53,769 nt of DNA from Minisyncoccota bacterium. GTDB lineage: Bacteria; Patescibacteriota; Minisyncoccia; UBA6257; 2-01-FULL-56-20. The position numbers and the translations under genes were made by a program. Numbering within the stretch: the stretch's first letter is position 1; each line of letters opens with the position of its first letter. Where the stretch lies: the NCBI GenBank assembly GCA_025449695.1, contig JANWIW010000029.1, positions 1 through 53,769 on the forward strand. Direction: 5' to 3'. Positions 12,756 to 53,769 of the stretch are shown in pieces. Under the pieces are notes generated by a model, which was not told the origin of the DNA, searched no databases, and worked only from the letters and a program-made list of their open reading frames with translations.

Positions 12756-12776
12756 TGTTAATAAGTGGATGTCTAC

Positions 12777-13865: not shown

Positions 13866-13868
13866 CAA

Positions 13869-14960
13869 ATGGGAGAATACTCACCAAGCATTGAGGCGGA
13901 AAAGCCATATAGTTCCAGGATCGAGCTTCACTTCTTCCGGCATTCCATCAAGGAAAGCGATGTCGTGAGCGAAACCGACCATGGAGTAAGGACATCAAGG
14001 GAGGGCAAGCGGCTGCTGAAGCAGGATACCTTCAGTAACGTGAACCTCGACCAGGCGGTCGCCTTTGGCAGCCCGCGAGACCGTGCCCAGGAGGCGGCAG
14101 GGTTCATGATGGCCGGCCATAGGGATGACATCACCGAAGACGATACGCTGGAGAGCCTAAAGGAGAAGCTCGATGCCGAACTTAAATACGGCTCGAAGAT
14201 CGGCGTCGATCACCGCCTCGATTTCCATGAGAGCAGGACCGGAAGCCCGGTAGCAAGGATGCTCTACGCGGCGATGGATCGCGGCGAGTACGCGAAAGCC
14301 ATAATCGAAGATAGCGACAAGATGGCCGAGGAAATCGGCGATGCGTCGGGAGCCAACTATTCCTTCAAGGCCGCAGGAATCGCGAGTGTCATCGAAAAGT
14401 ACATGAAGGTCGCCCCGAGATGGGACCAACTAGTGGCAGAAAAGAGCGGCCAATATACCGATACCCTCGAACGATATTTCGGCACCCATCAGGGCATGAG
14501 CGAGTCATTCCTTGCGAAGGTTATTGAAAAGACACAGGGCCTTGAGAGCAGGGCCAGGTTCATCGAGGCGTTCAGCAAGCAGGGATTTGATTTCAACAAA
14601 GGATTCGGCATGGAGATCCTTACGGGACCGCATGGAGAGCAGGCGTTGAAGATCAATATGATCATAGAAGGGAAAGATGATGTTCCGGGACATGTTCTTG
14701 ATCAGGAAGTTTCGGCTGCGACCATCAGGGAGATCATTCAGGAGGGAACCGAAGGACAGCGGCGGCTCATGGGCATGGCGTTGAGGCGCAGGCGCGAGGA
14801 GGGAGCGGTCGCGGAAAGCACCGTCGCCGAGAGGGCAAACCTTTCCGTGGAGCAGATCCAAGCCATGGAGAGCGGCGAATACCCCGACGTCCCGGACTAT
14901 GTCCGGGTCGTCGAGGCCATGGGATATCCCGCCGCCGATTTCGCCAGGTTCAAACCCTGA
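13869..14960 (+). CDS. histidine phosphatase superfamily protein with a C-terminal XRE-type HTH
   Basis: FFRHS, SPRDRAQE, THQG; C-terminal LRRRREE...VAERANLSVEQIQAMESG. Confidence 0.65.
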   Translation: MGEYSPSIEAEKPYSSRIELHFFRHSIKESDVVSETDHGVRTSREGKRLLKQDTFSNVNLDQAVAFGSPRDRAQEAAGFMMAGHRDDITEDDTLESLKEKLDAELKYGSKIGVDHRLDFHESRTGSPVARMLYAAMDRGEYAKAIIEDSDKMAEEIGDASGANYSFKAAGIASVIEKYMKVAPRWDQLVAEKSGQYTDTLERYFGTHQGMSESFLAKVIEKTQGLESRARFIEAFSKQGFDFNKGFGMEILTGPHGEQALKINMIIEGKDDVPGHVLDQEVSAATIREIIQEGTEGQRRLMGMALRRRREEGAVAESTVAERANLSVEQIQAMESGEYPDVPDYVRVVEAMGYPAADFARFKP

Positions 14961-36770: not shown

Positions 36771-37811
36771 ATGAACCAATTTACCCCCAAAACCTTGGAA
36801 AATCTCCTTCAGGGCCTGGCCGACCGGCAGCGCAAGGTAGTCATGGGCCGTTTTGGCCTGGAAAATAAGGGCAAATCAATAAAGCAGACCCTCGAGGCGA
36901 TCGGGAGGTTGTTTAGCATCACCCGCGAGCGGGTACGCCAGATCGAGGCTGCGTCTCTTCGGACCATCGCCGAAAACGTCAAGGAGAACTCCCTGGCCCA
37001 GAACCTGATCCGGGACGCAAAGAAGATATTGAAGGATGCGGGCGGCGTCATGCGCAAAGATGCTCTCATTGATATGCTGTCGAAGGCCTACGAGGGCATC
37101 ACGGAAAACTACATCGCCTTGCTCTTGGCCGCCTCGCATGCGTTCGAGGTCCATCCCGAGGACGACCAGTTCCGGGCGTTTTATTTCGCGGACAAGGAGG
37201 CTCTGAAGAAAGCCGAAGGCTTCATCTCCCAGTGGGTGAAACAGCTTCGTACCAAGAAGACGGCCATCCTGAACGGCACTTACCACGCGGAGTTCAAGGA
37301 CTTCGTGAAAGGCAAGAGCCTGCCCATCGAGCACGCCGAGAACTACATGGCGGTGTCCAAACTGATTCATATGAACTCCTTCAGCGATGTGGGCCTCACG
37401 GAATGGTCGGAAGTCAATCCCAAGACGATCCGCGACCGCATCCACCTCGTTTTGCGCAAGAAGAAGGAACCGGTCCATTTCACCGATATCGCGAAGCTCA
37501 TCAACGAGGCCAGGCTTGACCACCGCACCGCCCTTGCCTCCACCGTCCATAACGAGCTCATCAAGGACCCCCGTTTCGTACTGGTAGGCCGCGGCTTCTA
37601 CGGCCTGGCCGAACATGGCTACGAGCCGGGCACCGCACAGGAAGTGATCTCCCGCATCCTGAAGCGCAACGGCCCGATGAAATCCGGCGAGATCGTGCAG
37701 GCCGTCCAGAAGGAGCGCCTTTTCAAGCACAACACCATCCTGGTGAACCTGCAGAACAAGCAGCTCTTCGAGCGGCAGACCGACGGCACTTACAAGATGC
37801 GCGAGGCTTAA
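36771..37811 (+). CDS. sigma70 region-4-like HTH fused to C-terminal winged-HTH (HARE/RpoE-delta-like) domains
   Basis: RFGL...TLEAIGRLFSITRERVRQIE; HFTDI...TVHNELIKDPRFVLVGRGFYGL; TTGACA-18-TATAAT at 36726-36755. Confidence 0.8.
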   Translation: MNQFTPKTLENLLQGLADRQRKVVMGRFGLENKGKSIKQTLEAIGRLFSITRERVRQIEAASLRTIAENVKENSLAQNLIRDAKKILKDAGGVMRKDALIDMLSKAYEGITENYIALLLAASHAFEVHPEDDQFRAFYFADKEALKKAEGFISQWVKQLRTKKTAILNGTYHAEFKDFVKGKSLPIEHAENYMAVSKLIHMNSFSDVGLTEWSEVNPKTIRDRIHLVLRKKKEPVHFTDIAKLINEARLDHRTALASTVHNELIKDPRFVLVGRGFYGLAEHGYEPGTAQEVISRILKRNGPMKSGEIVQAVQKERLFKHNTILVNLQNKQLFERQTDGTYKMREA

Positions 37812-37914: not shown

Positions 37915-39276
37915 ATGCTTGAGTTCATCTGGGATTTTTGGAGCCATACCTGGTTCATATGGGTCTTCGCGGTCCTTCTTCCGTTCACCGAGAGTATCTG
38001 GACCGCGTGGCGGCAGAAGCACTTCGAACACAACATAAAATGGGCCATGCTCGAGATGTTAATCCCTCGGGAGATCGTCACGAGCCCCAAGGCCATGGAA
38101 CAAGTGCTCCTCCAACTCCATTCCTTCAAGAACTATCCCGCCAACGTCAAGGAGAAATACTTGCTAGGCGAGGTCACCCGGTGGCACTCCTTCGAGATAG
38201 TAGGCATCGACGGCGAGGTCCATTTCTATATCCGCACGCCTATGGATTACCGCGATATCGTGGAGGCCGCGCTCTTTGCGTACTATCCCGACATCGAGAT
38301 CGAGGAAGCGGAGGATTACATGAAACGGTTTCCCAAGACCATCCAGGCCCTCTACGGCGAGAGCTATCGCATGTGGGGAACGGAACTGCGGCTCGAGAAG
38401 AGCGCGGCCTATCCCATTCGCGATTACACCCAGTTCGAATCTCCGGACGAGAACAAGGAATACGATCCGATCTCCGGCATCATCGAGTTGTTCAGCAAGC
38501 TGAAGGTGGGACAAATGGCTGCGATCCAGATCCTGGTCCAGCCGGCCGCATCCCCCCATGACAAGCACGAGATCGAGGAATATAAGCAGGAGGTGGTGAA
38601 AGTTCGTGAAAGAAAAGGGGAAGCCGCGCATGCGGCCGCTCCCAAGCTGAAACTGAAGTTTCATGGCGGCATCCTGCCTACCCTTGAACCTCCTTCACCG
38701 GAAGAAGAGGCCGGCCTCGGCAGCACCCTCAAGAAGGCCATCATGACCCGCACCCCGGGCGAGACGAACATCCTGGAAGCCATGGAAGAGAGCCTGGCCC
38801 AGCCCATGTTTAACACGATCATCCGCTACATCTACGCATCGCCCTTCGAGTTCTACTCGGAGCACCTTCCCCGCCGCGCTATTTTCGGCGCCTTCAACGC
38901 CTATGGCGCGACCAACATCAATGCCTTCAAGCGCAATAGCAAGACCCAAACCCGCGGCAAGATGTGGGAATGGCCGTTCATTTTTCCGGACATCCGCAAA
39001 GAATACCGCCGCCAGCGTATTTGGTATGATTTTCGCAACCGCGAACTGCCGCCGCACAATACAATCGGCCGCCTGTTTATGTCCTACATCTTCAGCTGGC
39101 ACTTCGGCAGTAAAACGATGCATCTCAGTCCCCGTTCCCTGGCCACGGTGTGGCACCCGCCCACACACGCCATCCTGACCGGGCCGCATATCCGGCGCAT
39201 CGAGAGCAAGAAGATGGGCCCGCCTGCCGGCGTGGAGATTTACGGCGCCGAGGATCAAATAACCAAATTCCAGTAG
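37915..39276 (+). CDS. membrane-anchored protein resembling the domain that accompanies CPR coupling-protein-like ATPases
   Basis: N-terminal TM; SPKAMEQ, SFEI, YPDIEIEEAEDY, YPIRDY, QILVQP, LATVWHPP. Confidence 0.7.
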   Translation: MLEFIWDFWSHTWFIWVFAVLLPFTESIWTAWRQKHFEHNIKWAMLEMLIPREIVTSPKAMEQVLLQLHSFKNYPANVKEKYLLGEVTRWHSFEIVGIDGEVHFYIRTPMDYRDIVEAALFAYYPDIEIEEAEDYMKRFPKTIQALYGESYRMWGTELRLEKSAAYPIRDYTQFESPDENKEYDPISGIIELFSKLKVGQMAAIQILVQPAASPHDKHEIEEYKQEVVKVRERKGEAAHAAAPKLKLKFHGGILPTLEPPSPEEEAGLGSTLKKAIMTRTPGETNILEAMEESLAQPMFNTIIRYIYASPFEFYSEHLPRRAIFGAFNAYGATNINAFKRNSKTQTRGKMWEWPFIFPDIRKEYRRQRIWYDFRNRELPPHNTIGRLFMSYIFSWHFGSKTMHLSPRSLATVWHPPTHAILTGPHIRRIESKKMGPPAGVEIYGAEDQITKFQ

Positions 39277-39911: not shown

Positions 39912-41351
39912 ATGGCCCGATCAAGGATACAGATCATCCAGTATGCCCCGCCCCCGCCGGAACTTCCGGTGTACGGCAAGGACGACCCGAAGGACATTTC
40001 CTATTTCGGCCGCACCAACTACGTGGCGGCGCTGGAGGAAAAGAAGTTCATCTTCGGCATCAAGCGCGTCGACCGCCGCCGGCACCTTTACATCATCGGC
40101 AAATCCGGCGTCGGCAAGACGAAGCTCCTCGAGCTCATGATCCGGCAGGACGTCGCCTACGGCCACGGCCTCTGCCTCATCGACCCGCACGGCGACATCA
40201 TCGAGGCGACCCTGGAGTTCGTTCCGGAAGACCGCATCGAGGACGTGGTACTCATCGACCCCACCGATTTCAAATATCCTTCCTCGTTCAACCCGCTCGC
40301 GAACGTGGATCCCAACTTCAAGCACCAGCTGACCCAGGGCCTCATCGAAGTGCTCGAGAAACAGTTCGGCGCGAACTGGACGCCGCGCCTGGAGCACGTG
40401 TTCCGCTTCACTACGTTGGCCCTCCTCGACTATCCGCATGCCACTATGCGCGGCATGATCTCTATGCTCACCGACAGGAACTACCGCCAGAAGGTGGTGG
40501 AGTACATCACGGACGACATGGTCAAGCGCTTCTGGGCGATCGAGTTCGCGGACTGGTCGGAGAAGTTCGACACCGACGCCATCATCCCGCTTGTCAACAA
40601 GCTCGGCCAGTTCCTGTCCGACCCGATGCTCCGGAATATCTTCGGCCAGAAGGAGAACAAGATCGACCTGGAGAGCCTCATCAACCAGAAGAAGATCATC
40701 CTCATCAACCTCTCCAAAGGCAGGCTGGGCGAGGAGAACTCCAGCTTCTTCGGCGCCATGTTCCTCACGAAGATCAAGCAGGCCGGCATGGCCCGCGCCA
40801 CCATGCCGGAGAAGGACCGCCACGACTTCTACCTCTACGTGGACGAGTTCCAGAACATCGTGACCGAGACCTTCGAGAACATCCTGTCCGAGGCCCGCAA
40901 ATACGGCCTCTGCCTCACCGTGGCCCACCAGTATGTGGGCCAGCTCATCCCGCGCGTGCAGGCGGCCGTGCTCGGGAACGTCGGCTCCATCGTCATCTTC
41001 CGCGTGGGCGGCGAGGACGCGGTCAAGCTGAAGCCGGAGATGGCACCGGTCTTCGAGGTGAAGGATATGATCAACCTTGGCGTCAGGGAGTTCTTCATCA
41101 AGATGACCATCGACGGCGAGTCCTACGATCCGTTCTCGGCGGAAACGCTGAAGATCATGCCCCCGCCGCATCGCTCCTTCAAGGAGGAGATCCTGGCCGC
41201 CTCCCGCCGCAAGTACGCGATTCCAGCCGACTCGGCGAAGAAGCTCATCCAGGAAGAGGAATCCACCATCCTGCGGAGCGCCCAGGAGAAGGCCATCATC
41301 GAGGGCAAGAAGCCCGGCGAGGTGGAAAAGGCTCCGGAACCATTAATCTGA
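39912..41351 (+). CDS. type IV coupling protein-like / HerA-FtsK superfamily ATPase
   Basis: RRRHLYIIGKSGVGKT, IDPHGD, LYVDEFQN, SEARKYGL, AHQY. Confidence 0.9.
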   Translation: MARSRIQIIQYAPPPPELPVYGKDDPKDISYFGRTNYVAALEEKKFIFGIKRVDRRRHLYIIGKSGVGKTKLLELMIRQDVAYGHGLCLIDPHGDIIEATLEFVPEDRIEDVVLIDPTDFKYPSSFNPLANVDPNFKHQLTQGLIEVLEKQFGANWTPRLEHVFRFTTLALLDYPHATMRGMISMLTDRNYRQKVVEYITDDMVKRFWAIEFADWSEKFDTDAIIPLVNKLGQFLSDPMLRNIFGQKENKIDLESLINQKKIILINLSKGRLGEENSSFFGAMFLTKIKQAGMARATMPEKDRHDFYLYVDEFQNIVTETFENILSEARKYGLCLTVAHQYVGQLIPRVQAAVLGNVGSIVIFRVGGEDAVKLKPEMAPVFEVKDMINLGVREFFIKMTIDGESYDPFSAETLKIMPPPHRSFKEEILAASRRKYAIPADSAKKLIQEEESTILRSAQEKAIIEGKKPGEVEKAPEPLI

Positions 41352-41489
41352 GCCGGGCTAGCAACCTTCCTAAAGACATGAAAACGTGCCTTAATATATC
41401 TTATGCAGGCGCTGGCACGGCGTATCAAAAGCTCCTTATCGCAGGGAGGTAGTGCTATGCACGCGGGATCGCGCACGACAGGACCTCTC

Positions 41490-41666
41490 ATGGACAGAAC
41501 GACGATCGAAGAAAAGATGGCTGAGCTTCAGAGCCTGCTCGTCCAATATCGGAGCAGTCTGGGCGGCCTGGAGAAAGATCTCCTCGCGGTTATCAGTGAA
41601 TACCACGCCGCTCTCAAAGAAGAGCGGTTGCGCGAGCTAAAAAAAGACCTTACGCCCGGCTCGTGA
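41490..41666 (+). CDS. small coiled-coil protein (58 aa)
   Basis: MDRTTIEEKMAELQSLL...; stop overlaps the next start (GTGA). Confidence 0.55.
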   Translation: MDRTTIEEKMAELQSLLVQYRSSLGGLEKDLLAVISEYHAALKEERLRELKKDLTPGS

Positions 41667-44600
41667 CGAACGAAACAAAAAAGCCTCTGGATTCCATCGG
41701 CGAAATTCCGGCCGGAACCGTCGAAGGCGCTTCGGAGCGAAAACTCGACGAGCGAACGCTGCAGGAAGCACTAGAGCGTGCCGGTGTGGAAGTGGAGAGC
41801 GAGGGAGCGAGGGTGCTGGATGAAGCCGAGCGCCGCGCCGCGCCGCCGTCCTCGATAGTCCTGGATCCCTCCAAGGTGGAAGCGATCCGCGAAGAAGGCG
41901 GTTTCGGAAGCCGGATTCAGGGGCTCCGGGATATGATTTCCGGTCTCGTTCAAGCGACCAAAGACAAGATCGCGGCGATCGCGAAGAATAGGGAGGAAGG
42001 GAGGCTCATATCGGAGGTCAAATCGCAGAGGGTAGAAAACCCTCAGCGCGTTGCCGAGCTTGGGCGTTATTTGGAACGGCAGGCGGTCGAGAAGCACTCC
42101 GAGACATTCTCCGATCGGGAACAAGGTCAGCAACGAGCCGAAGCGCAAGCCGCCAAGCTGCGCTCGGAGGGTTACTCCGTTTCGGCAATACCGTATGGAG
42201 CAACGAAAGATTATATCGCGACCAAAGAAACGCCATACGTCTTCAGGCCAAAGGAATCCCAGGTCCTGGTACAGCATCTTGCCGATATGGCCGCGGCATC
42301 ACCCAATGCGATACGGGTATTCGAAGCGCTCCAGGGCTTCGGTTTCCGCCTCGAGCTTCAGGGTTTCGGCGCCTCAAGCGGCGCTGTCCTGAACGGTGCC
42401 CAGGGGTTAAAAGAGCTGGTCAGGGAACCGAATGCCGCCGCCTTCCTGGAGCGGTTGAGCGCTTTGGGTCCCGAAACCGTGACGCGCGAGTTCACCGGTC
42501 ACTTGGGAAAGGACGAGACATTTCGGCGGCTCGCCCAGCTTGCGAAGAAAGAGGCAGAACATCCCTTCCTTGCCGAATCCGGACCTGCGTTGGCCCGGGT
42601 CGCGGAAGCCTTCGGCCATCCTTTGGAGCTCAGCAATCTCGAGACCTGGGCGCGCCTCGCGGAAGATGAGGCGGTCTTGGAGATACTGCCAAGCCTCGTG
42701 GACAAATACGGAAAGGCTGTGGGCGAGACCGGCCGTTCCGGCTACGGCCATGAATTGCAGGAAAAGACGATTATCAAAGAAGTCGCGACGCTTAAGGACG
42801 CCAATGTGGCGGGGGAGTTCGCGGCTCTGATCAAGGCCGGTTTTCCGGCGAACGCCCTTGGCTACATGGACGGCAACGCGCATTCGACCGCAACGAGGAA
42901 CATCAAGCGGGCGGTTGAGGCATTTGCGGAAACGCCGGGTTTGCAGGAGCTGATGCGCGGTATGGTGGACGTGTTCGGCATGAGGGATGTTGTAGATTCG
43001 AGAACGCTCGCGCAATGCAAGGAGTTCCTGAATGACGTGCCATCAGCCCCCGCCGCACTGTCGCTCCTTGCGCGACGAGGTATCAAGACCCGTCCTGAAG
43101 ACAATAGATACCTTCTCGAGCCATCTGCGCGTCAGGACATCCGCAAGACGTTTGATGCCATGGCCGAACCGGACTTCGAGGCTTTTATGACCCAGTGCCA
43201 GCAACTCGGCTACAGGTTCGGAGAGGATGACTTTCTCCCGTCTTATCGCAATGATGCCCGGTTCAACGGGGTTGTTCAAAATTATCAGAACGAGGCGTTC
43301 CGATCCGCTCTCGGATCCGAAGAAGGTCAGGCTCTTAGCGCCTACCTCAAGGTGTTCGAGATGCCCTCGCTGCGGTGGTACGGCGAGATCGTAGTGGAGA
43401 TGCTTGCGATCCCGGACGCACTGGCCACCATGCAGAAACTGGAGAAAGCATACGGCTACCGCTACGCCGCGGCGAGCGATCAGATAGGCGAGGCGTATAA
43501 GCTTACCGAGGCCTTGAAGGACCAGGAACTGTGCCGGAAGCTCGTCGACCCGTCCATGGTGCGCATCTTGAGCGGTCAGGCAGGCTTCGACATCAAGTTC
43601 TCCATGCTCGACGCGAAGCGCCAGGTCGCCCTCCTTGAAAAACCTTCGACGAAAGCCGTCCTGGAGGACGCCGAAGCCATAGGTTTCGCGAAGGAAATAT
43701 TGGGATCGAGCACGAGTCTGAAGGATATCATTGGATTGGCGCAATGCGATCCGTCGCTCCGCCCGCTCCTTAGGAGGATGGTCACAGAGTTCCATTATTC
43801 GCCTCTGGTGCTGGATCATGAGGACGAACAGGGAAATCCGAGCTACACCCTTTACGAAGAAGGGACATTGAAGCGCCTGCGCGACGATCCCACTATTCTC
43901 GAGGTTCAAGGCAGGCTGAAACAGGCCGGCTTGGAGAAGAATCCGATGCATTGGGCCCCGGAACTTCGCAAAGCGGCCGATCTGGATCTCGTTGCTCTTT
44001 TTGAGCGCTATGCCGGGTCACCCGGCACTTTGCAGATGATCTGGCAGAACATGGAGGCCATGGCGGAACTGAGGTCCCTCTATCCCGACAAGGTCGAGAC
44101 GTATATGGAGATCTTCCAGAAGGTCGCCGACTCTCCCTCGCAAGAGGTGCAGCGGCTGAAGGACCAGCTCCTCTCCCAGCTCCTCCGGTCAGAACATCCG
44201 GTCGAAGACTATCAGAAGATAGAATCCATTTTCATCAAGAACAATGTTCCTACCGTCGGCAAGGTGTTCAACGTGTTCCAGGTGCTCTACGACTCCGGCC
44301 GCGTGGACCAGATACTGAAGGGCAATACCAGGTTGAGCCCGGTGCTGGAAGCATCAGGTTCCGGCCGCCGTTATTACACGATCTATCAGGACTTGCTGAG
44401 CGTCCACATAGAATCGGGTAACAGGTCGCTCAAAGAATACGTGGAGGTCCTCCAAAGCGGCGGTGACCTCCTGGATCGTTTCGAGCAGGAAGGATTAGCT
44501 TCTCTCGAAGAGAGAGAGCAGGAGCGCCTTCGTTACTTCGTAGGAAAGCTGGAAACGCTTCTGTCCAGGTCCGCGCTCGAGACTGCCGGGGAAGCATTCG

Positions 44601-46270
44601 CGGTGAGCGCGTCCGAGCTCGGAGAACGCATCCGGCATGTGCGGGAAGGGTTGAAAGTGGTGACCGGACAGACCGTCCTGGAGCGCGTAGCGGAGATGTA
44701 TCTGCGTCCCGCAGGGCTCACGCGGCCGGAAGAACTTCTGGAGGTCATGCGCGCCGCGAAGACCTCCGCCGATTCGAGGGGCCGCGCCATGATCGCGGAA
44801 GTCCTCCGGACGGAAGGGCAGACCCTCGGAATAAACGAGGGGGACCTGCTGAAAGCCGTGAACCACAAGTACATCGGCAACATCCTCCAGAACGGCTCGG
44901 TGGCTAAGGAGTTCCTCGGCGCGAATTCCGACTCTGACTCGACCCCGCTCGACACCGATGTGAGCATTGTTCTCCCGGAAGATCTCAAAGAAGGGAATGC
45001 GGGAGCTATCCGCAATTCCCACGCGAACGACAGCACGTACGGCTCGTTGCTTTTCGTGCTCAAGGACCATGGCCGGTTCCAGCGCACCGAAGAGGGCGTG
45101 AACGTGCGGCCGGAGGCCGGCAAGCGGGAGCTCTTCAAGACGGGCGTGCTCGGCGAGCGGCACTATGGGATCAGGACCGGATTCGCGTCCACGGAGATCG
45201 ATTTCATGGTGGCGAAAGAAGAAATCACCCGCGATGCCAAAGGCATGGAAAAGCTGTTCTTCGAAATTGTGCAGAACGGATTCTACGTGCCCATCGTGGA
45301 CATCGAAGGCAAAATCATCTTCACCCCGGAGATGTATGATGAGCGGCGACGGGCTTTCGCGGGAGTGGAGAAGTTCGACGGCGAGCCGTTGCGGTTCGAG
45401 CCATTGTCCCCGGATAGCCGTTCCTACGGCCAGATCCGGGAGATCGGCGCGGCCTTCCCGGAGGACAGTGAACGGGTCCGGACCGCGGCCGGAGCCATCC
45501 GGAGCGAGATCCAGGTTGCCCTGGGCGGCCTGGGAGTGAGTCTCAGATCCGAGTTCGACACGGGCATTCTTGGCGCCGAGCTCCTGGACACCGGTTCGAC
45601 CGGCCGGTACACCAACATGCCCGGTGATTTCGACTTCGATTTCAGCCTGAAGCTGGATGCGAACGATTTCCCGAAAGCGAAGGCGCTCGCGCAGGCAATC
45701 AATAGCTTAATGGTCAAGGAAGGGAGCAATGATCACGAGGAGGAAGGAGGATACTACCAATTGAGGGCAAAAGGCGTCACTCGGATAGGAGACCGCGTCT
45801 TCGAAAAGCCCCTCGACATCGATATCGGCTTCGCCAGCAAATCGGATCTTAGCGTGTATGGTTCGCATGACGCGATCCGCGATAAGTTGGATCACATCAG
45901 GGAGCACCAAGGCGAGGAAGCATATCGGGAATCCGTTGCCAACGTCATACTTGCCAAGACCTTTCTGAAGGAAGGCCATGCGTATAAGAAGGGAGAAGCC
46001 GCGGACGGAGGAATGGGCGGCATTGGCGTGGAGAACTGGATTCTCGCGCATGGCGGCAATATGGAATCCGCGTTCCGCAGTTTCTACGATGCCGCTCATG
46101 ACGAACAGGGCAATCGGGTCTCTATCGATGAATTCAGGAAGCGGTACCGGGTTCTGGACGCGGGAGTCAACATCAAATACCTTGGCCACGACAATTTTAT
46201 CGACATCCTGAAGCCCCAGGGGTACGAGGCGATGCTGGCCGTCATTGAAGGGTATTTGGAAGGGAAATAA
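41663..46270 (+). CDS. 1535-aa protein with a C-terminal Pol-beta-superfamily nucleotidyltransferase and a preceding ART-like domain
   Basis: TGSTGRYTNMPGDFDFD...DIDIGF...AKTFLK...GGIGVENWIL; LLKAVNHKYIGNILQNG...YG...IRTG. Confidence 0.7.
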   Translation: MTNETKKPLDSIGEIPAGTVEGASERKLDERTLQEALERAGVEVESEGARVLDEAERRAAPPSSIVLDPSKVEAIREEGGFGSRIQGLRDMISGLVQATKDKIAAIAKNREEGRLISEVKSQRVENPQRVAELGRYLERQAVEKHSETFSDREQGQQRAEAQAAKLRSEGYSVSAIPYGATKDYIATKETPYVFRPKESQVLVQHLADMAAASPNAIRVFEALQGFGFRLELQGFGASSGAVLNGAQGLKELVREPNAAAFLERLSALGPETVTREFTGHLGKDETFRRLAQLAKKEAEHPFLAESGPALARVAEAFGHPLELSNLETWARLAEDEAVLEILPSLVDKYGKAVGETGRSGYGHELQEKTIIKEVATLKDANVAGEFAALIKAGFPANALGYMDGNAHSTATRNIKRAVEAFAETPGLQELMRGMVDVFGMRDVVDSRTLAQCKEFLNDVPSAPAALSLLARRGIKTRPEDNRYLLEPSARQDIRKTFDAMAEPDFEAFMTQCQQLGYRFGEDDFLPSYRNDARFNGVVQNYQNEAFRSALGSEEGQALSAYLKVFEMPSLRWYGEIVVEMLAIPDALATMQKLEKAYGYRYAAASDQIGEAYKLTEALKDQELCRKLVDPSMVRILSGQAGFDIKFSMLDAKRQVALLEKPSTKAVLEDAEAIGFAKEILGSSTSLKDIIGLAQCDPSLRPLLRRMVTEFHYSPLVLDHEDEQGNPSYTLYEEGTLKRLRDDPTILEVQGRLKQAGLEKNPMHWAPELRKAADLDLVALFERYAGSPGTLQMIWQNMEAMAELRSLYPDKVETYMEIFQKVADSPSQEVQRLKDQLLSQLLRSEHPVEDYQKIESIFIKNNVPTVGKVFNVFQVLYDSGRVDQILKGNTRLSPVLEASGSGRRYYTIYQDLLSVHIESGNRSLKEYVEVLQSGGDLLDRFEQEGLASLEEREQERLRYFVGKLETLLSRSALETAGEAFAVSASELGERIRHVREGLKVVTGQTVLERVAEMYLRPAGLTRPEELLEVMRAAKTSADSRGRAMIAEVLRTEGQTLGINEGDLLKAVNHKYIGNILQNGSVAKEFLGANSDSDSTPLDTDVSIVLPEDLKEGNAGAIRNSHANDSTYGSLLFVLKDHGRFQRTEEGVNVRPEAGKRELFKTGVLGERHYGIRTGFASTEIDFMVAKEEITRDAKGMEKLFFEIVQNGFYVPIVDIEGKIIFTPEMYDERRRAFAGVEKFDGEPLRFEPLSPDSRSYGQIREIGAAFPEDSERVRTAAGAIRSEIQVALGGLGVSLRSEFDTGILGAELLDTGSTGRYTNMPGDFDFDFSLKLDANDFPKAKALAQAINSLMVKEGSNDHEEEGGYYQLRAKGVTRIGDRVFEKPLDIDIGFASKSDLSVYGSHDAIRDKLDHIREHQGEEAYRESVANVILAKTFLKEGHAYKKGEAADGGMGGIGVENWILAHGGNMESAFRSFYDAAHDEQGNRVSIDEFRKRYRVLDAGVNIKYLGHDNFIDILKPQGYEAMLAVIEGYLEGK

Positions 46271-46329: not shown

Positions 46330-48000
46330 ATGGCCAAAGAGACGAAGATATGCAGAAACTGCACCGGCTCTTTTACGATCGAGCCGGACGACGCGGCGTT
46401 CTATGCGCGCATAGACGTGCCGCTGCCCACGCTTTGCCCGGAGTGCCGCTTCAAGCGGCGAGCGGTCTGGCGAAACGAGACCACTCTCTATAACCGGGCC
46501 TGCGGCCTGTGCAACGCGCCGGTTATCAGCATGTATAACCCCAAATCCCCGTATGTGGTCTATTGCAATACCTGCTGGATTTCAGACAAGTGGGATCCCG
46601 GATCTTATGCCATGGACTACGACCCGGAGCGCCCCTTCCTGGAGCAGTTCAATGCCCTCCTTCTTAAAGTGCCTAAATGGGCAACCTACAGCAGTCCTGC
46701 TTCGGGGCCGAACATCAACAGCGAATATACGAACTTCGCGGGCGGCAACAAGGATTGTTACCTGATTTTCAACTCGGGGCCAAAAAATGAGAACTGCGCT
46801 TATTCCCGGGGCCTGACCAATACCCAGAATGTGTTCGATACCTACTACGGCGACGGCCTGGAGCGGGTGTACGAGGGGGTGAACGTCCAAAAGAGCGCAG
46901 GGGTCGCCTGGAGCACCGATGTGTCCGATTGCCTGGACTCCGCGTTTCTTCTCAACTGCAGCGGTTGCAAGGATTGCTTCGGCTGCGTGAATCTGCGCCA
47001 CGCGACGAACTGCTTCTTCAATGAGCAACTGACCGCGGAGGAATATCGCCGCCGAGTAGACGAGATCACGGGCAGCCGCACGAAGATAGCCGAAGCCCGC
47101 CGGCGGTTCGAAGAACTTGCCCGGAATCTACCTCGCCGCGAGAACAGCAACCTCAAATCCGTGAACTGCATTGGCAATTACCTCATCGAATCCAAGGATT
47201 GCCGCCATTCTTTCGAGGTGGCCGGCGGCGAGAACCTTTGCTATTCCTTTTCTACGAAATGGGGCAAGGATAACTACGACATAGCAGGTCATGGCCGGAA
47301 GAGCGAACTTCTCTACGAGTGCGTCGGGGTAGGTTGGAGCTCGCGGATATGGTTCTCTTCTTCCGTCGAGAGCTCGCACGACGTCGAATATTCCCATACT
47401 GTGCGTTCCAGCCAGTACTGTTTCGGTTGCGATGCGGTCCGGAACGGGGAGCATATGATATTGAACAAGAGATACACGGAGGAGGAATACCGCCGTCTCC
47501 GCGAGGACATCATCGGCAAGATGAAGGCGGAAGGGACCTATGGAGAGTTCTTTCCAATAGGAATGGCCCCCTTCGGCTACAACGAGACCGTGGCGGAAGA
47601 TAATTTTCCGCTTTCCCGCGAGGAGGCCGTCGCGCATGGCTACCGTTGGGAAGAAAACGTGCAGATGACGACGGGCAAAGAAACCTTGCGGCCGGAGGAA
47701 GTTCCGGACCACATTGACGATGTGCAGGATTCGATATTGGGCGGCGTCCTGCGTTGCGCGGGATGTGGACGGAATTACAAGGTCATCCCCGTTGAACTTG
47801 CCTTCTATCGCCAGATGAAGTTGCCGGTCCCTGCAGAGTGTTTCTACTGCCGCCACCGCGCCCGGATCCGGAGAAGGGGACCGATGGAAATATTCGACAG
47901 TGCGTGTGCCAAGTGCGACAAGAGCATCAAGACTACTTATGCGCCGGACCGCCCGGAGATCGTGTATTGCGAAAGTTGTTATCAATCAGAGGTGGCATAA
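46330..48000 (+). CDS. Cys-rich CPR-type hypothetical protein with multiple CxxC zinc-ribbon motifs
   Basis: CRNC, CPEC, CGLC, CNTC, CFGC repeats, CAGC, CFYC, CAKC, CESC. Confidence 0.85.
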   Translation: MAKETKICRNCTGSFTIEPDDAAFYARIDVPLPTLCPECRFKRRAVWRNETTLYNRACGLCNAPVISMYNPKSPYVVYCNTCWISDKWDPGSYAMDYDPERPFLEQFNALLLKVPKWATYSSPASGPNINSEYTNFAGGNKDCYLIFNSGPKNENCAYSRGLTNTQNVFDTYYGDGLERVYEGVNVQKSAGVAWSTDVSDCLDSAFLLNCSGCKDCFGCVNLRHATNCFFNEQLTAEEYRRRVDEITGSRTKIAEARRRFEELARNLPRRENSNLKSVNCIGNYLIESKDCRHSFEVAGGENLCYSFSTKWGKDNYDIAGHGRKSELLYECVGVGWSSRIWFSSSVESSHDVEYSHTVRSSQYCFGCDAVRNGEHMILNKRYTEEEYRRLREDIIGKMKAEGTYGEFFPIGMAPFGYNETVAEDNFPLSREEAVAHGYRWEENVQMTTGKETLRPEEVPDHIDDVQDSILGGVLRCAGCGRNYKVIPVELAFYRQMKLPVPAECFYCRHRARIRRRGPMEIFDSACAKCDKSIKTTYAPDRPEIVYCESCYQSEVA

Positions 48001-49223: not shown

Positions 49224-51269
49224 ATGCGTGCACGCATGGCCATCATCTTTACCGCCCTTCTCGCGGTGCTCGCGCCTCAGTATGCGCAAGCATATGGGAC
49301 GCAGACCCATGCATATTTGACCGGTGTGGCGTTTGATCTCTACAACGCCAGCGCTCAAGAGCCCTTGCCGGCCGAGTGGCGGGATTATATGGTCGAAGGT
49401 TCCCGCGCGGAAGATGCCGACCCGCGCTATATGAATCACTTTTATGATCCGGTAGGGAACCGGGGGTTGCGCCGCGATCCAGCCATAGACCCCTTTTATT
49501 TTCTTGGTACCTGGCCTTCCTCCAAGGCGTGGGCACAGGATGGCAGCGCTCAGAATCGTCCTTTCTACAAGCTAAGCGCGGCAATGGCCGCGGCGGAAAG
49601 CGATTTCAGCTGGGATGCGGGCATCCGTGCCTATGCGCGCGGCGAACACGGGAAGGCAATGGCTATTCTGGGGCACATCCTGCATCTCATCGAGGACCTG
49701 GCAGTTCCGGAGCACACCCGCAACGATCCTCATCCGCTCGGATGCCCCTACGAAGATTGGACGGCGCGCTTCGATCCCGGCCACCCCGACCCGGGCCTTC
49801 GGGACAGGCTCCAAGGCATGGCGCCGGTTCGCCTGGATGATCTGAACGCCTACTTCGACGATCTTGCGCGTTACACGAACTCCCATTTCTACAGCCACGA
49901 CACGATCGGCATCCAGAACGGCTATTCCGCGCCGGTGTCGGAGGTCCTGGAACGGAGGAACGGCCTGTGGTTCCGGATGGGGGAGGACGAGGAAGGATCC
50001 TATCCGCTGGTCCAACAGGTGCGATTGAACCGGTTCAACTTCGCGGTGGCCCTGGCAGGGGACCTGTCTCTTGCGGACCCGAACGGCACGGTTATGGAAG
50101 CGTACTGGTTCCGCCTTGCGCCGCGGGCCGTCCGATACTCAGCGGGAGTGATAGATCTTTTCTTAAAGGAAGGGGAGCGGGCAAAACGCAATCCCCTGTT
50201 TGCAAGTACAGAACGGGAATCGTGGTTGGACCGCTTCGGCACGGCGGTCAGGAGAGCGGTCGGTGCAGTTCTCGACGGTAATGCCGGACCGGCGGTTCTC
50301 GCACCGTTGCCGGCGGGGCATGGATCTCCGGAACCCCTGCAGGCCGGACCTGCGGTAGAGAAGGAACCGGCCCTGCCCGGCGCTCCCGGCAAGGAAGCCG
50401 GTCCGAAGCTTCCCATCTCATCCTCTACGACTGCAGCTTTTCCTCCAGTCTCCTTGATCACTGTACCTGTCCCTTCCCAGATGGCGTCCGCGACTGTGGC
50501 AAAGGTCAAAACCGCATCTTTCCCGGATACGCTCGTAGTCTCTCTGCCGCTTGTCTTCTATGGTGGCGCACCTTCCGCAATCACCTCGCCGTCCGTTACA
50601 GAGAAGATCATCGAGCAAGTGTACGATAGCCTGGAAGAGGCTGCTGCTCCACCCCCGGCGCCCACGAGCACGATTCCGGAAACGGGAGGAGAAGGAGATC
50701 AAGAGGAGAATGAGGAAGAGAGTGGGGATATTCCAACCGCCACGTCCACGGACGAAGGCGCCTCGGGAGGAGTCCTCATCTTGCCCGAGCCTCCGCCAAT
50801 CGCGACGAGCACCGAGCCCGGTCCTTTTCCCGGCACCGCGTCGACTACCGCCACCTCTACGGATTCCGGTATTCCACCTGAGCCGCGGACCGCGAGTGGA
50901 GCCTTTGATCGCGCCTCGTTCCCGAACGAATACTGCAATTTCGGAAAGGCGACGCTCGTACCCGCCGAAGATATACGGATCGCTTCCGTCGATTTCTTCG
51001 CGGCCTGCGCCAATGGGTTCTGCGGCGGCCCGGATACCTTCCGTATCTTCGACGAAGACGGCTTGACCATGCTTGCGGAAAGCAAACCGGGCATGTTCGG
51101 CCATGTGGAGCTCCGGCCTATGTATCTTGAGTTCTGGCCAGAGGACCGGATAGTCCTCACGGCCGGACACACGTACCGCATCACTCCCTTCGCCGGGAAC
51201 GGCCAGTGCATGGTGGATTCCTGGGGAGGCCCGCGCGGCATCTTCACATTGAATGGAATCGCCCCGTAA
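49224..51269 (+). CDS. secreted protein with a zinc-dependent phospholipase C/P1-nuclease domain, P/T/E-rich linker and C-terminal beta domain
   Basis: signal peptide AQA-YGTQTH, NHFYDP, LGHILHLIEDLAVPEH, YE. Confidence 0.8.
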   Translation: MRARMAIIFTALLAVLAPQYAQAYGTQTHAYLTGVAFDLYNASAQEPLPAEWRDYMVEGSRAEDADPRYMNHFYDPVGNRGLRRDPAIDPFYFLGTWPSSKAWAQDGSAQNRPFYKLSAAMAAAESDFSWDAGIRAYARGEHGKAMAILGHILHLIEDLAVPEHTRNDPHPLGCPYEDWTARFDPGHPDPGLRDRLQGMAPVRLDDLNAYFDDLARYTNSHFYSHDTIGIQNGYSAPVSEVLERRNGLWFRMGEDEEGSYPLVQQVRLNRFNFAVALAGDLSLADPNGTVMEAYWFRLAPRAVRYSAGVIDLFLKEGERAKRNPLFASTERESWLDRFGTAVRRAVGAVLDGNAGPAVLAPLPAGHGSPEPLQAGPAVEKEPALPGAPGKEAGPKLPISSSTTAAFPPVSLITVPVPSQMASATVAKVKTASFPDTLVVSLPLVFYGGAPSAITSPSVTEKIIEQVYDSLEEAAAPPPAPTSTIPETGGEGDQEENEEESGDIPTATSTDEGASGGVLILPEPPPIATSTEPGPFPGTASTTATSTDSGIPPEPRTASGAFDRASFPNEYCNFGKATLVPAEDIRIASVDFFAACANGFCGGPDTFRIFDEDGLTMLAESKPGMFGHVELRPMYLEFWPEDRIVLTAGHTYRITPFAGNGQCMVDSWGGPRGIFTLNGIAP

Positions 51270-51298
51270 AGCAGCGGGCCGGTGCTATAATAAAGCGT

Positions 51299-52795
51299 AT
51301 GTCGCTTCTCATCCGCAACGTGAGCGTGCTCGGCTCGACGCAGGACCTGCCGGAGCGCGCGGACGTGTTCGTGAATGGCGACACAATCTCCGCCATCGGC
51401 AACTTCCCGCAGAAGAGCGCCGACGAGGTGATCGACGGGCAGGGCGCGTATCTCTCGCCAGGCTTCATCGACGTGGATACGACTTCGGACCATTATCTCA
51501 CCCTCTTTTCCGGTCCCGGGCAGGAGGATTTCCTGAGGCAAGGAGTAACCACTATCGTGGGCGGCCACTGCGGCGCGAGCCTGGCTCCCTTGCTCTATGG
51601 CAGCCTTGAATCCATACGCAAGTGGGGGGATCCGGAGAAGGTGAACGTGGACTGGCACACCGTTGCCGAGCTCTTTGAGGCGCTGAAACGCCGTCCGCTC
51701 GGGGTTAATTTTGCGACCTTCGCCGGTCATTCCACCATCCGCCGGGCGATGCTCGGCGAGGACATCCGCGATCTTGCCAAGAACGAGATCGCGGTCTTCA
51801 AGGGAGTCATCGAGAAGGCGATGACGGACGGGGCGATGGGGCTCTCGAGCGGTTTGGAATACGTACACAGCCGGGGCGCCTCTTACGCGGAATTGAAGGC
51901 TCTCCTCGCCGCGGTTGGGCCGAATGGAATCTACGCGACGCACCTGCGCCATGCCGCGGGCGCCGTGGACGGCGGCATGGAGGAGGCGGTCAGGCTGCAT
52001 CAGGAGACGGGCGTGCCGGCGCTCGTGAGCCACTTTGTGCCGGTCCACAGGTTCCGCAAGGAATATCTCCGCGCGCTCGAGCTTATGGACGCCCTGCCGG
52101 CGGAGGCAGACTTCCACTTCGACGTCTATCCTTTCGGCGGTACGGTGTTCGCGCTGTACCGTCTCATGCCGGAGTGGGCTCAGAACGGCAACCTCGAGCT
52201 CATGGTCAGGAACGTGGCGGATGAATGGCTCGGCAAGCGCATCACCGCGAGCCTGCCGGAAATCGACCCCCTGCAGATCACGATCGAGGCGGCGCGCAAT
52301 CCCGATCTCGCCGGCCGGACGCTCGCCGAGTTCATGGAGTTCGCCGGCGTCGAAGGAGCCCGGGCGGGACTTCTGGAGCTCATGCGCGCCACCCGCCTGC
52401 AGGCGGTGGTCTCCTGGCAGAACGTGGACGAGGGGCTCCTGGAGGAAGCCTTGCTGCATCCGCGGGCCCTCATTGGCTCGCACGCCGCCGCCGGCATCGA
52501 GGTGTACGAACGGGAGACCTTTTTGCAGGAGCGGGCCCGCCGGGCATTCACCGCCTTCCTGGGCCGCATGGAGGAAAAGAAAATGCTGGAGGAGGGGGTC
52601 CGGCGGGTGACCGCCATGCCCGCGAAGAAGTTCGGCTTCAAGCGGAGGGGTGCCGTGGCGCAGGGCTATGCCGCCGATCTGGTCATCTTCAAATCCGGCG
52701 CGGTCCGGACCGTGGTAGTGAACGGCAAGGTCGCCCTCCACGAAGGCAATCCGACAGGCGCGCTCGCAGGGCGCCCGTTGCGTCGCGAGCCATGA
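51299..52795 (+). CDS. N-acyl-D-amino-acid deacylase-like amidohydrolase with a degenerate metal site
   Basis: PGFIDVDTTSD, QGVTTIVGGHCG, GLSSGLEY, YATHLR, ADLVIF; TATAAT at 51286 supports a leaderless start. Confidence 0.85.
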   Translation: MSLLIRNVSVLGSTQDLPERADVFVNGDTISAIGNFPQKSADEVIDGQGAYLSPGFIDVDTTSDHYLTLFSGPGQEDFLRQGVTTIVGGHCGASLAPLLYGSLESIRKWGDPEKVNVDWHTVAELFEALKRRPLGVNFATFAGHSTIRRAMLGEDIRDLAKNEIAVFKGVIEKAMTDGAMGLSSGLEYVHSRGASYAELKALLAAVGPNGIYATHLRHAAGAVDGGMEEAVRLHQETGVPALVSHFVPVHRFRKEYLRALELMDALPAEADFHFDVYPFGGTVFALYRLMPEWAQNGNLELMVRNVADEWLGKRITASLPEIDPLQITIEAARNPDLAGRTLAEFMEFAGVEGARAGLLELMRATRLQAVVSWQNVDEGLLEEALLHPRALIGSHAAAGIEVYERETFLQERARRAFTAFLGRMEEKKMLEEGVRRVTAMPAKKFGFKRRGAVAQGYAADLVIFKSGAVRTVVVNGKVALHEGNPTGALAGRPLRREP

Positions 52796-53769
52796 GGATG
52801 CTGCGCAGATTGTTCGGAAAGGACGGGGGGCATCATCCCGATTACTTCCTTTTGGCGACATTGTTCCTTCTCGTGGTGGCGGGCCTCGCCATTCTGACCA
52901 GCGCCTCGTCCGATCTCGGCAAGGTAAAGTTCAACGACAGCTATTACTATCTGAAGCACCAGCTCGTGTCCGGATTCCTCGTCGGAGGGCTGGGATTTCT
53001 CATTGCCGCGTACGTTCCGTACAAGTCCTATAAGAGCCTGGCTTTCCTTTTCCTGATCCTGAACCTCGTCCTTCTGGTGCTCGTGTTCACCCCTCTCGGC
53101 CACACGGCCGGGGGCGCGAGCCGCTGGATCGATGCCGGACCGGTGACTTTCCAGCCTGCCGAGCTCCTCAAGCTCTCCTTTATCCTCTACGTGGCCGCGT
53201 TCTTCTCCGATACCCGCCGGAACCGCGCCAAGAACATCCGTTCCGGCCTCCTGCCTTTCCTGCTCGTGGCGGGCACCATGACCGTGCTCCTCATCCTTCA
53301 GCCAGCGACATCCACGGTGATGATCTTGCTCGCTGCCGGCCTCGTGATCCTTTTTCTTTCCGGCGTTTCCTGGAAGCATCTCGGCATGATAATGGGCGGG
53401 GGAGTAGTCCTGCTCGGCCTGCTCATCGCTACCACTTCGTACCGCCTCCAGAGGATCGTGAGCTATTTTGACCATTCCTCGGACACGCAGGGCGCGAACT
53501 ACCAGGTGAACCAGAGCATGATCGCCCTCGGCTCCGGCGGAGTATTCGGGCTCGGGTATGGGCGCTCCACCGTCAAGGTGAGCCGGCTGCCCGCGGTGGT
53601 CGACGATTCCATCTTCGCGGTCGTGGGGCAGGAACTGGGCTTTGTGGGCACGGGCAGCCTAGTCGCCCTCTTTGCCATCCTCGTGGCGCGCCTCTTCTGG
53701 CTCGCGCGGGGCCGTCGGGCCCCGCAGCTCCGCAGAGCGGGCGGAGGGGAATGTGTGTACTGCGACGTG
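52792..53769 (+). CDS. ftsW: FtsW/RodA (SEDS) peptidoglycan glycosyltransferase, truncated by the window end
   Basis: GASRWI, FQPAELLK, YQVNQSMIALGSGGVFGLG, LPAVVDDSIFAVVGQELG. Confidence 0.9.
   Translation, partial: MRMLRRLFGKDGGHHPDYFLLATLFLLVVAGLAILTSASSDLGKVKFNDSYYYLKHQLVSGFLVGGLGFLIAAYVPYKSYKSLAFLFLILNLVLLVLVFTPLGHTAGGASRWIDAGPVTFQPAELLKLSFILYVAAFFSDTRRNRAKNIRSGLLPFLLVAGTMTVLLILQPATSTVMILLAAGLVILFLSGVSWKHLGMIMGGGVVLLGLLIATTSYRLQRIVSYFDHSSDTQGANYQVNQSMIALGSGGVFGLGYGRSTVKVSRLPAVVDDSIFAVVGQELGFVGTGSLVALFAILVARLFWLARGRRAPQLRRAGGGECVYCDV

Follow-up and report, generated by a model that had tools for sequence, protein, structure and literature searches.

A 1535-residue protein of a Minisyncoccota bacterium combines a predicted ADP-ribosyltransferase fold with a Pol-beta nucleotidyltransferase and may modify nucleic-acid ends

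Class I CCA-adding enzymes possess a helical neck with a K...Y-G/K...G-rich...E motif, and Cid1, TUT4, TUT7, the poly(A) polymerases and GLD-2 carry out template-independent chemistry at RNA 3' ends. Tpt1 acts on the 2'-phosphate of RNA, with the catalytic Arg-His-Arg residues located in its RNA-binding N-lobe, and DarT, the toxin of DarTG, ADP-ribosylates DNA. Polyvalent proteins of phages and conjugative elements are very large and contain several enzymatic domains, among which ADP-ribosyltransferases (ARTs) are common, according to excerpts of Iyer et al. (2017; PMC5512222). Here, we describe a gene located in a DNA stretch of 53,769 nucleotides, which is called the window throughout (contig JANWIW010000029.1, positions 1 to 53,769 of the forward strand, GenBank assembly GCA_025449695.1 of a Minisyncoccota bacterium). 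Its product is referred to as the giant protein.

41663..46270, + strand: the whole gene, encoding the 1535-aa protein (open reading frame listing, translation, homologue searches)

The archaeal class I CCA enzyme (A. fulgidus; 4x4n, 1r89, 3ova) is the best structural match of the C-terminal domain, and a GS-x-x-R-x-T...DxD...D centre is common to both; however, only head and neck align (chain 2-249 of 437) at about 15% identity, the tRNA-binding body and tail are absent from the giant protein, and it has an ART-like domain plus more than 1000 further residues upstream. The same two-lobed catalytic module is found in Cid1/TUT4/TUT7, poly(A) polymerases and GLD-2 (Z 13.8-15.4 in the structural search VIA), whereas the giant protein is bacterial and fused to an ART-fold domain. 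The cGAS/DncV-like nucleotidyltransferases (CD-NTases) of the anti-phage system CBASS, OAS and cGAS share the superfamily fold and the catalytic triad (VIA Z 12-13.8, below the RNA enzymes), but CBASS partner genes and a PADLOC match are lacking for the giant protein. For residues 1058-1235, the NAD-binding C-lobe of Tpt1/KptA is the best structural match at the level of the fold; the giant protein differs by a Lys in place of His, about 50 extra residues and an RNA-binding N-lobe that was not detected. Second-best matches were obtained with DarT (Z 7.1-6.0), likewise an ART acting on nucleic acid, but there is no macrodomain antitoxin nearby, and sequence similarity to DarT was not detected. 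Like the polyvalent proteins, the giant protein is a very large multi-enzyme protein with an ART-like module; unlike them, as they appear in the excerpts cited (PMC5512222), which place them in phages and conjugative elements and describe them as delivered with DNA, its family has no confirmed relative in a viral contig collection and is found among housekeeping genes.

The open reading frame (ORF) starts with GTG and is translated into 1535 residues with no internal stop. The sequence LLKAVNHKYIGNILQNGSV maps to 44846-44902, GSTGRYTNMPGDFDFD to 45593-45640 and DIDIGF to 45815-45832, and the K...GGIGVE motif occupies residues 1432-1457. Translation and motif mapping thereby confirmed an earlier note on this DNA, which had listed the ORF and these motifs. 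The gene is present as a single copy in its genome (983,527 bases, 37 contigs, 92.7% complete). A word-indexed search, in which 7,997 candidates were scored, yielded 238 homologues at E<=0.001. When the C-terminal 496 residues served as query of an exhaustive HMMER search, 952 cluster representatives (50% identity) were found at the same threshold, 607 of them at E<=1e-30; because of these numbers the ORF is no chance frame. Named matches from Candidatus Zambryskibacteria, Taylorbacteria, Uhrbacteria and the 'Patescibacteria group' are all annotated 'hypothetical protein'. Pfam and PHROGs gave no match to the full protein at E<=0.01, and NCBIfam and PADLOC returned only chance-level rows (Csy1/Cas8f and DGQHR, E 0.007-0.06). 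A PDB sequence search with the single sequence produced one match at E 1.7; with the profile A1, four irrelevant matches were found, the best being an XPD helicase (E 0.003), which aligned with the helical middle part. The family is thus large, uncharacterised and almost wholly missed by curated libraries.

An AlphaFold2 model of residues 1040-1535, based on an alignment of 53 sequences, reached a mean predicted local distance difference test score (pLDDT) of 92.1 and a predicted template modelling score (pTM) of 0.90, at which the ART-like and nucleotidyltransferase (NTase) domains fold as one body. Upon comparison of this model with the PDB, Foldseek found 104 matches at E<=0.001, and all those listed are NTases of the Pol-beta two-lobed type. 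The best match was 3ova_A (E 5.3e-7), and 7 of the first 10 were archaeal class I CCA-adding enzymes, followed by poly(A) polymerases, Cid1, TUT7 and a CD-NTase. VIA, a search independent of Foldseek, aligned model residues 210-496, corresponding to residues 1249-1535 of the protein. Its highest score was obtained with the A. fulgidus class I CCA enzyme 4x4n_A (Z 16.8, root-mean-square deviation (rmsd) 3.5, 226 residues aligned, chain 2-249 only), followed by Cid1 (Z 15.4), NF90 (Z 15.2), yeast poly(A) polymerase (Z 15.2), TUT7 (Z 15.1), the CD-NTase DwCdnB (Z 13.8) and OAS1 (Z 13.4). The earlier note had proposed a Pol-beta fold of the CD-NTase, OAS or CCA type with a helical lobe for this C-terminus; the confident model, the 104 Foldseek matches and VIA scores of up to 16.8 agree with that proposal. 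The domain and its motifs are as follows.

45407..46267, + strand: residues 1249-1535, predicted two-lobed Pol-beta nucleotidyltransferase with a catalytic and a helical lobe (AlphaFold2 model, Foldseek, VIA)
45593..45640, + strand: catalytic motif G1311-S-T-G-R1315-Y-T1317...D1324-F-D1326 (mapped from GSTGRYTNMPGDFDFD; G, S, R, D and D each in 229/229 relatives)
45821..45823, + strand: third catalytic carboxylate, D1387 in DIDIGF (228/229 relatives)
45956..46033, + strand: helical-lobe motif K1432...Y1441-K...GGxGGxGxE1457 in the second lobe of the model (K1432, Y1441 and E1457 each in 229/229 relatives)

The pattern hG[GS]...[DE]h[DE]h with a third carboxylate is present as G1311 S1312, D1324-F-D1326 and D1387. 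Among the 229 relatives spanning the NTase domain, G1311, S1312, R1315, D1324, D1326, K1432, Y1441 and E1457 are invariant. The Pfam family NTP_transf_2 (PF01909) did not match the giant protein at E<=0.01, nor its C-terminal 496 residues at E<=1; 24 of 77 relatives were matched at E<=1, and a few relatives exceeded the cut-off of 21 bits (P0218 with 24.0, L058 and L068 with 22.4, L080 with 21.2). No PAP-associated or PAP_central match was found on the giant protein or on the C-terminal relatives searched. Judged by the model and by its residues, the C-terminus is a Pol-beta NTase with a helical second lobe and an intact catalytic centre. As modelled, its fold is nearest to the RNA 3'-end polymerases, from which signalling synthases are not cleanly separated by the fold search.

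Two relatives show additional features in connection with this domain. P0056, a family member of 1049 aa, carries a second, N-terminal NTase at residues 22-75 (PF10706, 25.3 bits). In L096:6001-7398 (+), a homologue labelled Bacilli, the helical lobe (residues 345-465 of the translated stretch) matches HEPN_RiboL-PSP with 31.8 bits (cut-off 28.4); four more of the 77 relatives match at E<=1, and the Rx4-6H motif is not conserved in the family. A reading as RNase was not adopted, and the match, which lies above the cut-off in a single homologue, is treated as unexplained.

The first fold search left its match list filled by the NTase, and residues 1040-1244 were therefore folded alone. The resulting model (pLDDT 89.6, pTM 0.86) contains the following domain.

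44834..45367, + strand: residues 1058-1235, predicted ADP-ribosyltransferase-fold domain, Tpt1/DarT-like, with Lys1064 at 44852-44854 (model, VIA, Foldseek)

The best Foldseek rows were all ADP-ribosyltransferases, namely yeast Tpt1 (E 0.065, probability 0.94) and then Tpt1/KptA, DarT, PARP14, cholix toxin and tankyrases. When compared by VIA with 48,161 chains, only 82 reached Z>=2. The NAD-binding C-lobe of yeast Tpt1 ranked first (7yw4_A, Z 8.3, rmsd 3.2, 108 of its 120 residues), followed by four DarT entries (Z 7.1, 6.6, 6.2 and 6.0), KptA (Z 5.9) and CteC (Z 5.6). The remaining rows of the 50 listed are mostly PARPs, diphtheria-, cholera- and pertussis-type toxins, Arr and Rhs ART toxins; judging by titles, we take about four-fifths of the 50 to be ARTs. 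The top Z of 8.3 is only middling on the tool's own calibration. The ART fold was accepted because the list is nearly uniform and the Tpt1 lobe is covered: residues 1058-1235, according to the model, adopt the ART split beta-sandwich fold. An ART-like fold had been suggested in the earlier note as a weak call, and the scores of Tpt1 (Z 8.3) and DarT (Z 7.1-6.0) bear it out.

By convention, ART motifs are described by one residue each of strands 1, 2 and 5 (excerpts of PMC5512222). At the position of the strand-1 His the giant protein has Lys1064, as judged from the first strand of the model, the sister proteins described below and the register of an hhalign alignment with KptA (DLLKGV..ILQNG over FLYHGT..I.KQGL), so that the canonical NAD-contacting His or Arg is not found there. 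This Lys is characteristic of the family: among 226 relatives, position 1064 is occupied by 221 K, 3 H, 1 Q and 1 R. The three His belong to P0230, P0231 and P0232; P0130 reads LLHV by eye. Near-invariant residues are E1083 (224/227), D1099 (224/227), E1156 (221/224) and H1167 (226/230), and the polar residues D1097 and T1172 are also near-invariant. By simple counting, E1156 opens the fifth model strand, the place at which ARTs carry the catalytic acid. Arg1171 is found in 226/230 relatives, with three sister proteins among the exceptions. The number of conserved polar residues speaks for a functional ligand or catalytic site in the ART-like domain.

The three distant sister proteins come from the phylum sample and contain the ART-like domain without the NTase (L019:62-4486 (-), 1474 aa; L020:5234-9229 (-), 1331 aa; L021:2867-4999 (+), 710 aa). 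At the position of Lys1064 they read YIHGS, LIHTT and LLHGT. The ART-like domain is followed by a stretch that looks kinase-like by eye (no Pfam match) in one of them, by a weak HD match in another (E 0.0016, below cut-off) and by nothing in the third.

The two C-terminal domains are preceded by a third conserved region and by a long N-terminal part.

44033..44779, + strand: residues 791-1039, conserved domain with invariant SPSQE, NNxPxVGK and SGNRS (84/84 loci, alignment A3, alignments with P0017 and P0073)
41663..44032, + strand: residues 1-790, lineage-specific, fast-diverging region (tblastn 5/84, no family match)

Related loci numbered 84, with 79 from species-representative genomes and five from the phylum sample. 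By tblastn, residues 791-1039 as well as residues 1040-1535 are present in 84/84 of them, and residues 1-790 in only 5/84. In pairwise alignments, conservation begins at about residue 790 with P0017 (56% identity over 792-1533) and at about residue 711 with P0073 (33% identity). From these counts and alignments it follows that the N-terminus diverges fast and that the C-terminal 745 residues or so are conserved. Among the 150 best representatives, of which a few shorter entries may be fragments, the module is C-terminal in proteins whose lengths range from about 600 to 3069 residues. Residues 1-790 are probably helical, and helix-favouring residues account for 51-52% of residues 1-1039. For residues 791-1039 neither Pfam nor the PDB nor the ESM Atlas provided a lead; in the ESM Atlas, no usable match was obtained with residues 790-1045, and only unnamed clusters and low-share leads with residues 1040-1250. 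A membrane segment or signal peptide was not predicted (maximal 19-residue Kyte-Doolittle mean 1.03), and as there is no hydrophobic segment, nothing in the protein points to Sec export or insertion into a membrane.

A small gene directly precedes the giant gene, and its product is predicted to contact the N-terminal region.

41490..41666, + strand: small partner, a charged helical protein of about 58 aa (15 loci, complex prediction; listed as ORF 41403-41666)
41744..41989, + strand: residues 28-109 of the giant protein, predicted docking helices for the partner (interface of the complex model)

The conserved part of the partner begins at Met-30 of the listed ORF (41490), and its stop overlaps the GTG start of the giant gene by 4 nt. 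An ORF of 40-150 aa ending beside the start of the giant gene was found in 14 of 62 loci with an intact 5' end. A hidden Markov model (HMM) built from 12 small ORFs was run on 12,101 stop-to-stop ORFs of the 84 loci and the window. It gave 17 matches, which represent 15 distinct loci, window included, after removal of two duplicates. The seeds match by construction; informative are the three extra loci and the finding that every match immediately precedes the giant gene and shares its strand, with none elsewhere. The partner stop is located -32 to +8 nt from the first start of the giant gene, and the exact 4-nt overlap occurs in 7/15 loci. No Pfam family matched the partner above its cut-off.

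The predicted complex of residues 1-790 with the partner scored ipSAE 0.62, 0.62 and 0.64, compared with 0.00 for the best control. The mark used for this score is reached by 116/157 solved complexes and by 2/215 mismatched pairs, counts which are only a rough guide here because own alignments were used; helical bundles are, moreover, easy for such models. The pLDDT of the partner was 80-82, and the runs agree in at least 90% of contacts. The predicted interface consists of residues 28-109 of the giant protein, which show an i,i+3/4 contact pattern (chain pLDDT about 81), and of residues 1-49 of the partner. The complex model supports binding of the partner to residues 28-109. An HMM of the docking segment (residues 20-120) detects only 3/73 giant ORFs, the three closest relatives.

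The C-terminal module was found in 11 of 301 genomes sampled across the phylum of the window, its own genome counted: seven match the whole module, one matches as fragments and three match in the ART-like part only. Within this sample, no listed genome from the order or class of the window carries the module. When 185,579 species-representative genomes were scanned for a pattern, 387 stretches were confirmed, and the taxon titles were taken from the best 80 of these. The titles belonging to the candidate phyla radiation (CPR) are Zambryski-, Taylor-, Magasanik-, Uhr-, Moranii-, Collier-, Gottesman-, Peri- and Gracilibacteria, Paceibacterota and 'Saccharibacteria'; gut metagenome-assembled genomes labelled Bacilli also occur among the best 80. 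Some automatic labels, such as 'Gammaproteobacteria', were not trusted. Of 101 genomes (0.8-1.5 Mb) from the order to which one 'Bacilli' genome belongs, 8 carry the module. Given this patchy presence (11/301; 8/101), the giant gene is an accessory gene of two small-genome bacterial groups. A phage origin was rejected: 26 pattern matches in a viral contig collection gave 0 confirmed relatives, and fold matches in BFVD were weak, generic NTases.

The nearest folds of both domains act on nucleic acids, and modification of nucleic-acid ends is therefore the most economical reading. We consider it an evenly balanced proposition that the giant protein is an accessory, soluble, cytoplasmic enzyme which modifies nucleic-acid ends in conflict or host interaction. 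The C-terminal 745 residues or so would form one working unit composed of the 791-1039 domain, the ART-fold domain and a template-independent NTase. From its fold, we infer that the NTase would extend nucleic-acid ends by nucleotides, RNA or tRNA being the most likely substrate. The ART-like domain, with Lys in place of His and the family-specific Arg1171, may hold the substrate end or a phosphate; alternatively, it might perform an NAD-type transfer on the substrate end. Targeting or regulation would be set by the variable N-terminal 790 residues or so together with the partner at residues 28-109. The protein could be a toxin-like effector directed at host or competitor cells, or a self-contained sensor-effector defence protein, and a housekeeping role appears less likely than one in conflict or interaction. 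In relatives, the module is joined to other C-terminal domains, such as the stretch that looks kinase-like by eye and the weak HD match mentioned above.

Several results weigh against modification of nucleic-acid ends in conflict. The target is deduced from the nearest folds, and a shared fold may not mean a shared function. The support for an ART domain is at the level of the predicted fold: Foldseek found nothing at E<=0.001 for it, and the hhalign comparison of the domain profile with E. coli KptA and 98 homologues was not significant (Prob 2.9%, E 0.016, 63 columns). Classical use of NAD+ is uncertain because the strand-1 His is replaced by Lys. For the NTase, CD-NTases and OAS reach Z scores (13-14) that are only a little lower than those of the RNA enzymes, and the Pfam family SMODS gave weak matches in 5/77 relatives at E<=1 (best E 0.0077). 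The strong conservation of the C-terminal module (33-70% identity in distant lineages) also fits cellular RNA processing. Furthermore, the neighbours in other loci are ordinary housekeeping genes, and no immunity or secretion gene, as expected for a toxin or an exported effector, is conserved near the giant gene in the loci compared.

For the genomic context, flanks of up to 6 kb were analyzed for ORFs of 80 aa or more. The commonest neighbour family occurs in only 6/79 loci; no conserved operon partners of at least 80 aa were found in the loci compared. The window neighbours, which Pfam identifies as SecD/SecF, a sigma-r4/HARE-HTH protein, a VirD4-like ATPase, a zinc-finger protein, an amidohydrolase and FtsW, adjoin at most 5/84 homologues. 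In five further loci, the neighbours include penicillin-binding proteins, Dus, QueA, ArgRS, ProRS, MraZ/FtsL, PPDK and the like. A macrodomain (DarG) is not present among the window neighbours or among 21 neighbours of five homologues. A VirD4/TraD-like ATPase is encoded just upstream at 39912-41351. A secretion context via this ATPase was rejected because it is a core gene (present in 100/101 genomes of the phylum, with four matches in the genome of the window) and adjoins the homologue of the giant gene in only 1/84 loci.

These data bear on the idea that the giant protein is exported, chaperoned or targeted by its partner, and that the NTase AMPylates or nucleotidylates and the ART-like domain ADP-ribosylates proteins in a host or rival cell. 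We regard such an exported, protein-modifying effector as doubtful. A multi-enzyme, host-directed effector had been one of two functions offered in the earlier note, and this may still apply. Export would suit the large multi-enzyme architecture with a variable N-terminus and the restriction of the best 80 of 387 genome matches to CPR and small-genome gut genomes labelled Bacilli. A partner on N-terminal helices is also reminiscent of the adaptor or chaperone pairs known from secreted effectors. Delivered multi-enzyme ART proteins are, moreover, known from phages and conjugative elements in the excerpts of PMC5512222. However, the giant protein has neither a signal peptide nor a membrane segment, no secretion gene is specifically linked to it (the VirD4-like ATPase being present in 100/101 genomes and adjacent in 1/84 loci), and there is no conserved immunity gene. 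The nearest ART folds act on nucleic acids, the nearest NTase folds polymerise RNA, and no relatives were confirmed in the viral contig collection.

Quite unlikely, in our estimate, is repair or tailing of the cell's own RNA. Here, the Tpt1-like domain would heal ends bearing a 2'- or 3'-phosphate, while rebuilding or tailing of tRNA or RNA at the 3' end would fall to the CCA/PAP-like domain. Tpt1 and the class I CCA-adding enzyme are indeed the nearest folds, the C-terminal module is strongly conserved and the neighbours are housekeeping genes; the Tpt1 function would otherwise be missing, since canonical Tpt1 (PF01885) is present in 0/151 genomes of the phylum, that of the window included. 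The presence of the module in only 11/301 and 8/101 sampled genomes speaks against such a function, however. A hypervariable N-terminus of about 800 residues and the swapped C-terminal domains of the sister proteins would be unexpected, the strand-1 His is replaced by Lys, and the Tpt1 RNA-binding N-lobe, which is part of PF01885, was not detected, as there is no match of this family on the giant protein.

The other function offered in the earlier note, a sensor-fused second-messenger synthase of the CD-NTase, OAS or cGAS type with an N-terminus that senses infection and an NTase that makes a nucleotide signal, fared less well and appears improbable. The GS...DxD...D centre and the helical lobe are common to CD-NTases and OAS, DwCdnB and OAS1 score Z 13.8 and 13.4 in VIA, the weak SMODS matches point in the same direction, and the variable N-terminus could be a sensor. 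RNA-end enzymes nevertheless score higher (Z 14.5-16.8), and class I CCA enzymes make up 7 of the first 10 Foldseek matches; among the PADLOC models, none for CD-NTases matches at E<=0.1, and no effector, receptor or Cap gene is conserved alongside (best family in 6/79 loci). The earlier note had remarked that CBASS effector or cap genes are not adjacent, and this was upheld by the Pfam results for the neighbours and by PADLOC, which detected no CBASS component for the giant gene or its eight neighbours at E<=0.1. A second-messenger synthase is thus less likely because RNA-end folds are closer, a PADLOC match is lacking and no effector or cap gene is conserved in the 79 + 5 loci; furthermore, it would leave the ART-like domain without a role.

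A housekeeping CCA-adding enzyme, the prosaic outcome against which the earlier note had set its reading, is effectively refuted: although the archaeal class I CCA enzyme is the best structural match, the match covers head and neck only, the giant protein ends at residue 1535 without a body or tail for tRNA binding, the genome encodes its own class II PolyA_pol enzyme elsewhere (PF01743, 128.5 bits, G000:C18:30307-30702), and the gene is absent from most relatives sampled (11/301 have it).

Additional observations were made on the genes around the giant gene. The membrane protein encoded at 37915-39276 and the VirD4/TraD/HerA-like ATPase at 39912-41351, both on the + strand, correspond to the two halves of phrog_5156 (824 positions; E 4.7e-8 and 7.9e-54, respectively), with a 200-aa membrane protein encoded between them. 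The ATPase usually occurs in 2-4 copies per genome of the phylum; in several genomes, the match crosses one in-frame TAA, and fused and split forms may be alternatives. Further upstream, 36771-37811 (+) encodes a 346-aa protein with an N-terminal sigma-70 region 4 (E 3.2e-9) and a HARE-HTH domain (E 1.7e-9); sigma region 2 was not detected in it, which makes it an unusual fusion of a sigma fragment. Downstream, 46330-48000 (+) encodes a Cys-rich protein of 556 aa with treble-clef zinc-finger matches at both ends (below the Pfam cut-offs) and a repetitive middle; its relatives are found near homologues of the giant gene in 2/84 loci (L024, L027). The amidohydrolase ORF 51206-52795 and the FtsW/RodA ORF 52225-53769 (+) share about 570 nt, which they read in different frames. 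Because the FtsW Pfam match begins only at residue 209, FtsW itself probably starts downstream of 52795. The G+C content of 12001-14000 is 0.477 as compared to 0.56-0.63 elsewhere in the window, and this segment may be foreign DNA.

The ART fold and the NTase fold themselves are well known. Apparently new are their fusion, the ART motif with Lys in place of His, the conserved domain at residues 791-1039 and the partner of the giant protein; in the titles and abstract openings of the literature searched, a giant family combining ART and NTase was not found described. A bolder version of the nucleic-acid-end reading, which is speculative and rather unlikely, holds that the Lys-variant ART fold and the CCA/PAP-like NTase form a composite active site for an undescribed modification of nucleic-acid ends, checked or targeted by the partner of about 58 aa and used against host or phage RNA by ultra-small symbionts, namely CPR bacteria and the reduced gut lineages labelled Bacilli. 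Recognition of an RNA end, or transfer of ADP-ribose or phosphate, might for example be coupled to untemplated nucleotide addition.

CPR bacteria, or Patescibacteria, live on other cells and account for a substantial part of bacterial diversity. To our knowledge, the biochemistry of their accessory proteins has been predicted in few cases. The family of the giant protein now gains three handles, namely an intact NTase centre, an ART-fold domain with Lys in place of His, as predicted, and a small partner. Its ART and NTase domains merit models of the Pfam type, which would end the 'hypothetical' calls in genomes. If both domains cooperate on RNA ends, they would represent a new nucleic-acid-modifying chemistry; should it serve as an effector or in defence, the protein would be among the first enzymatic weapons assigned to CPR and similar organisms.

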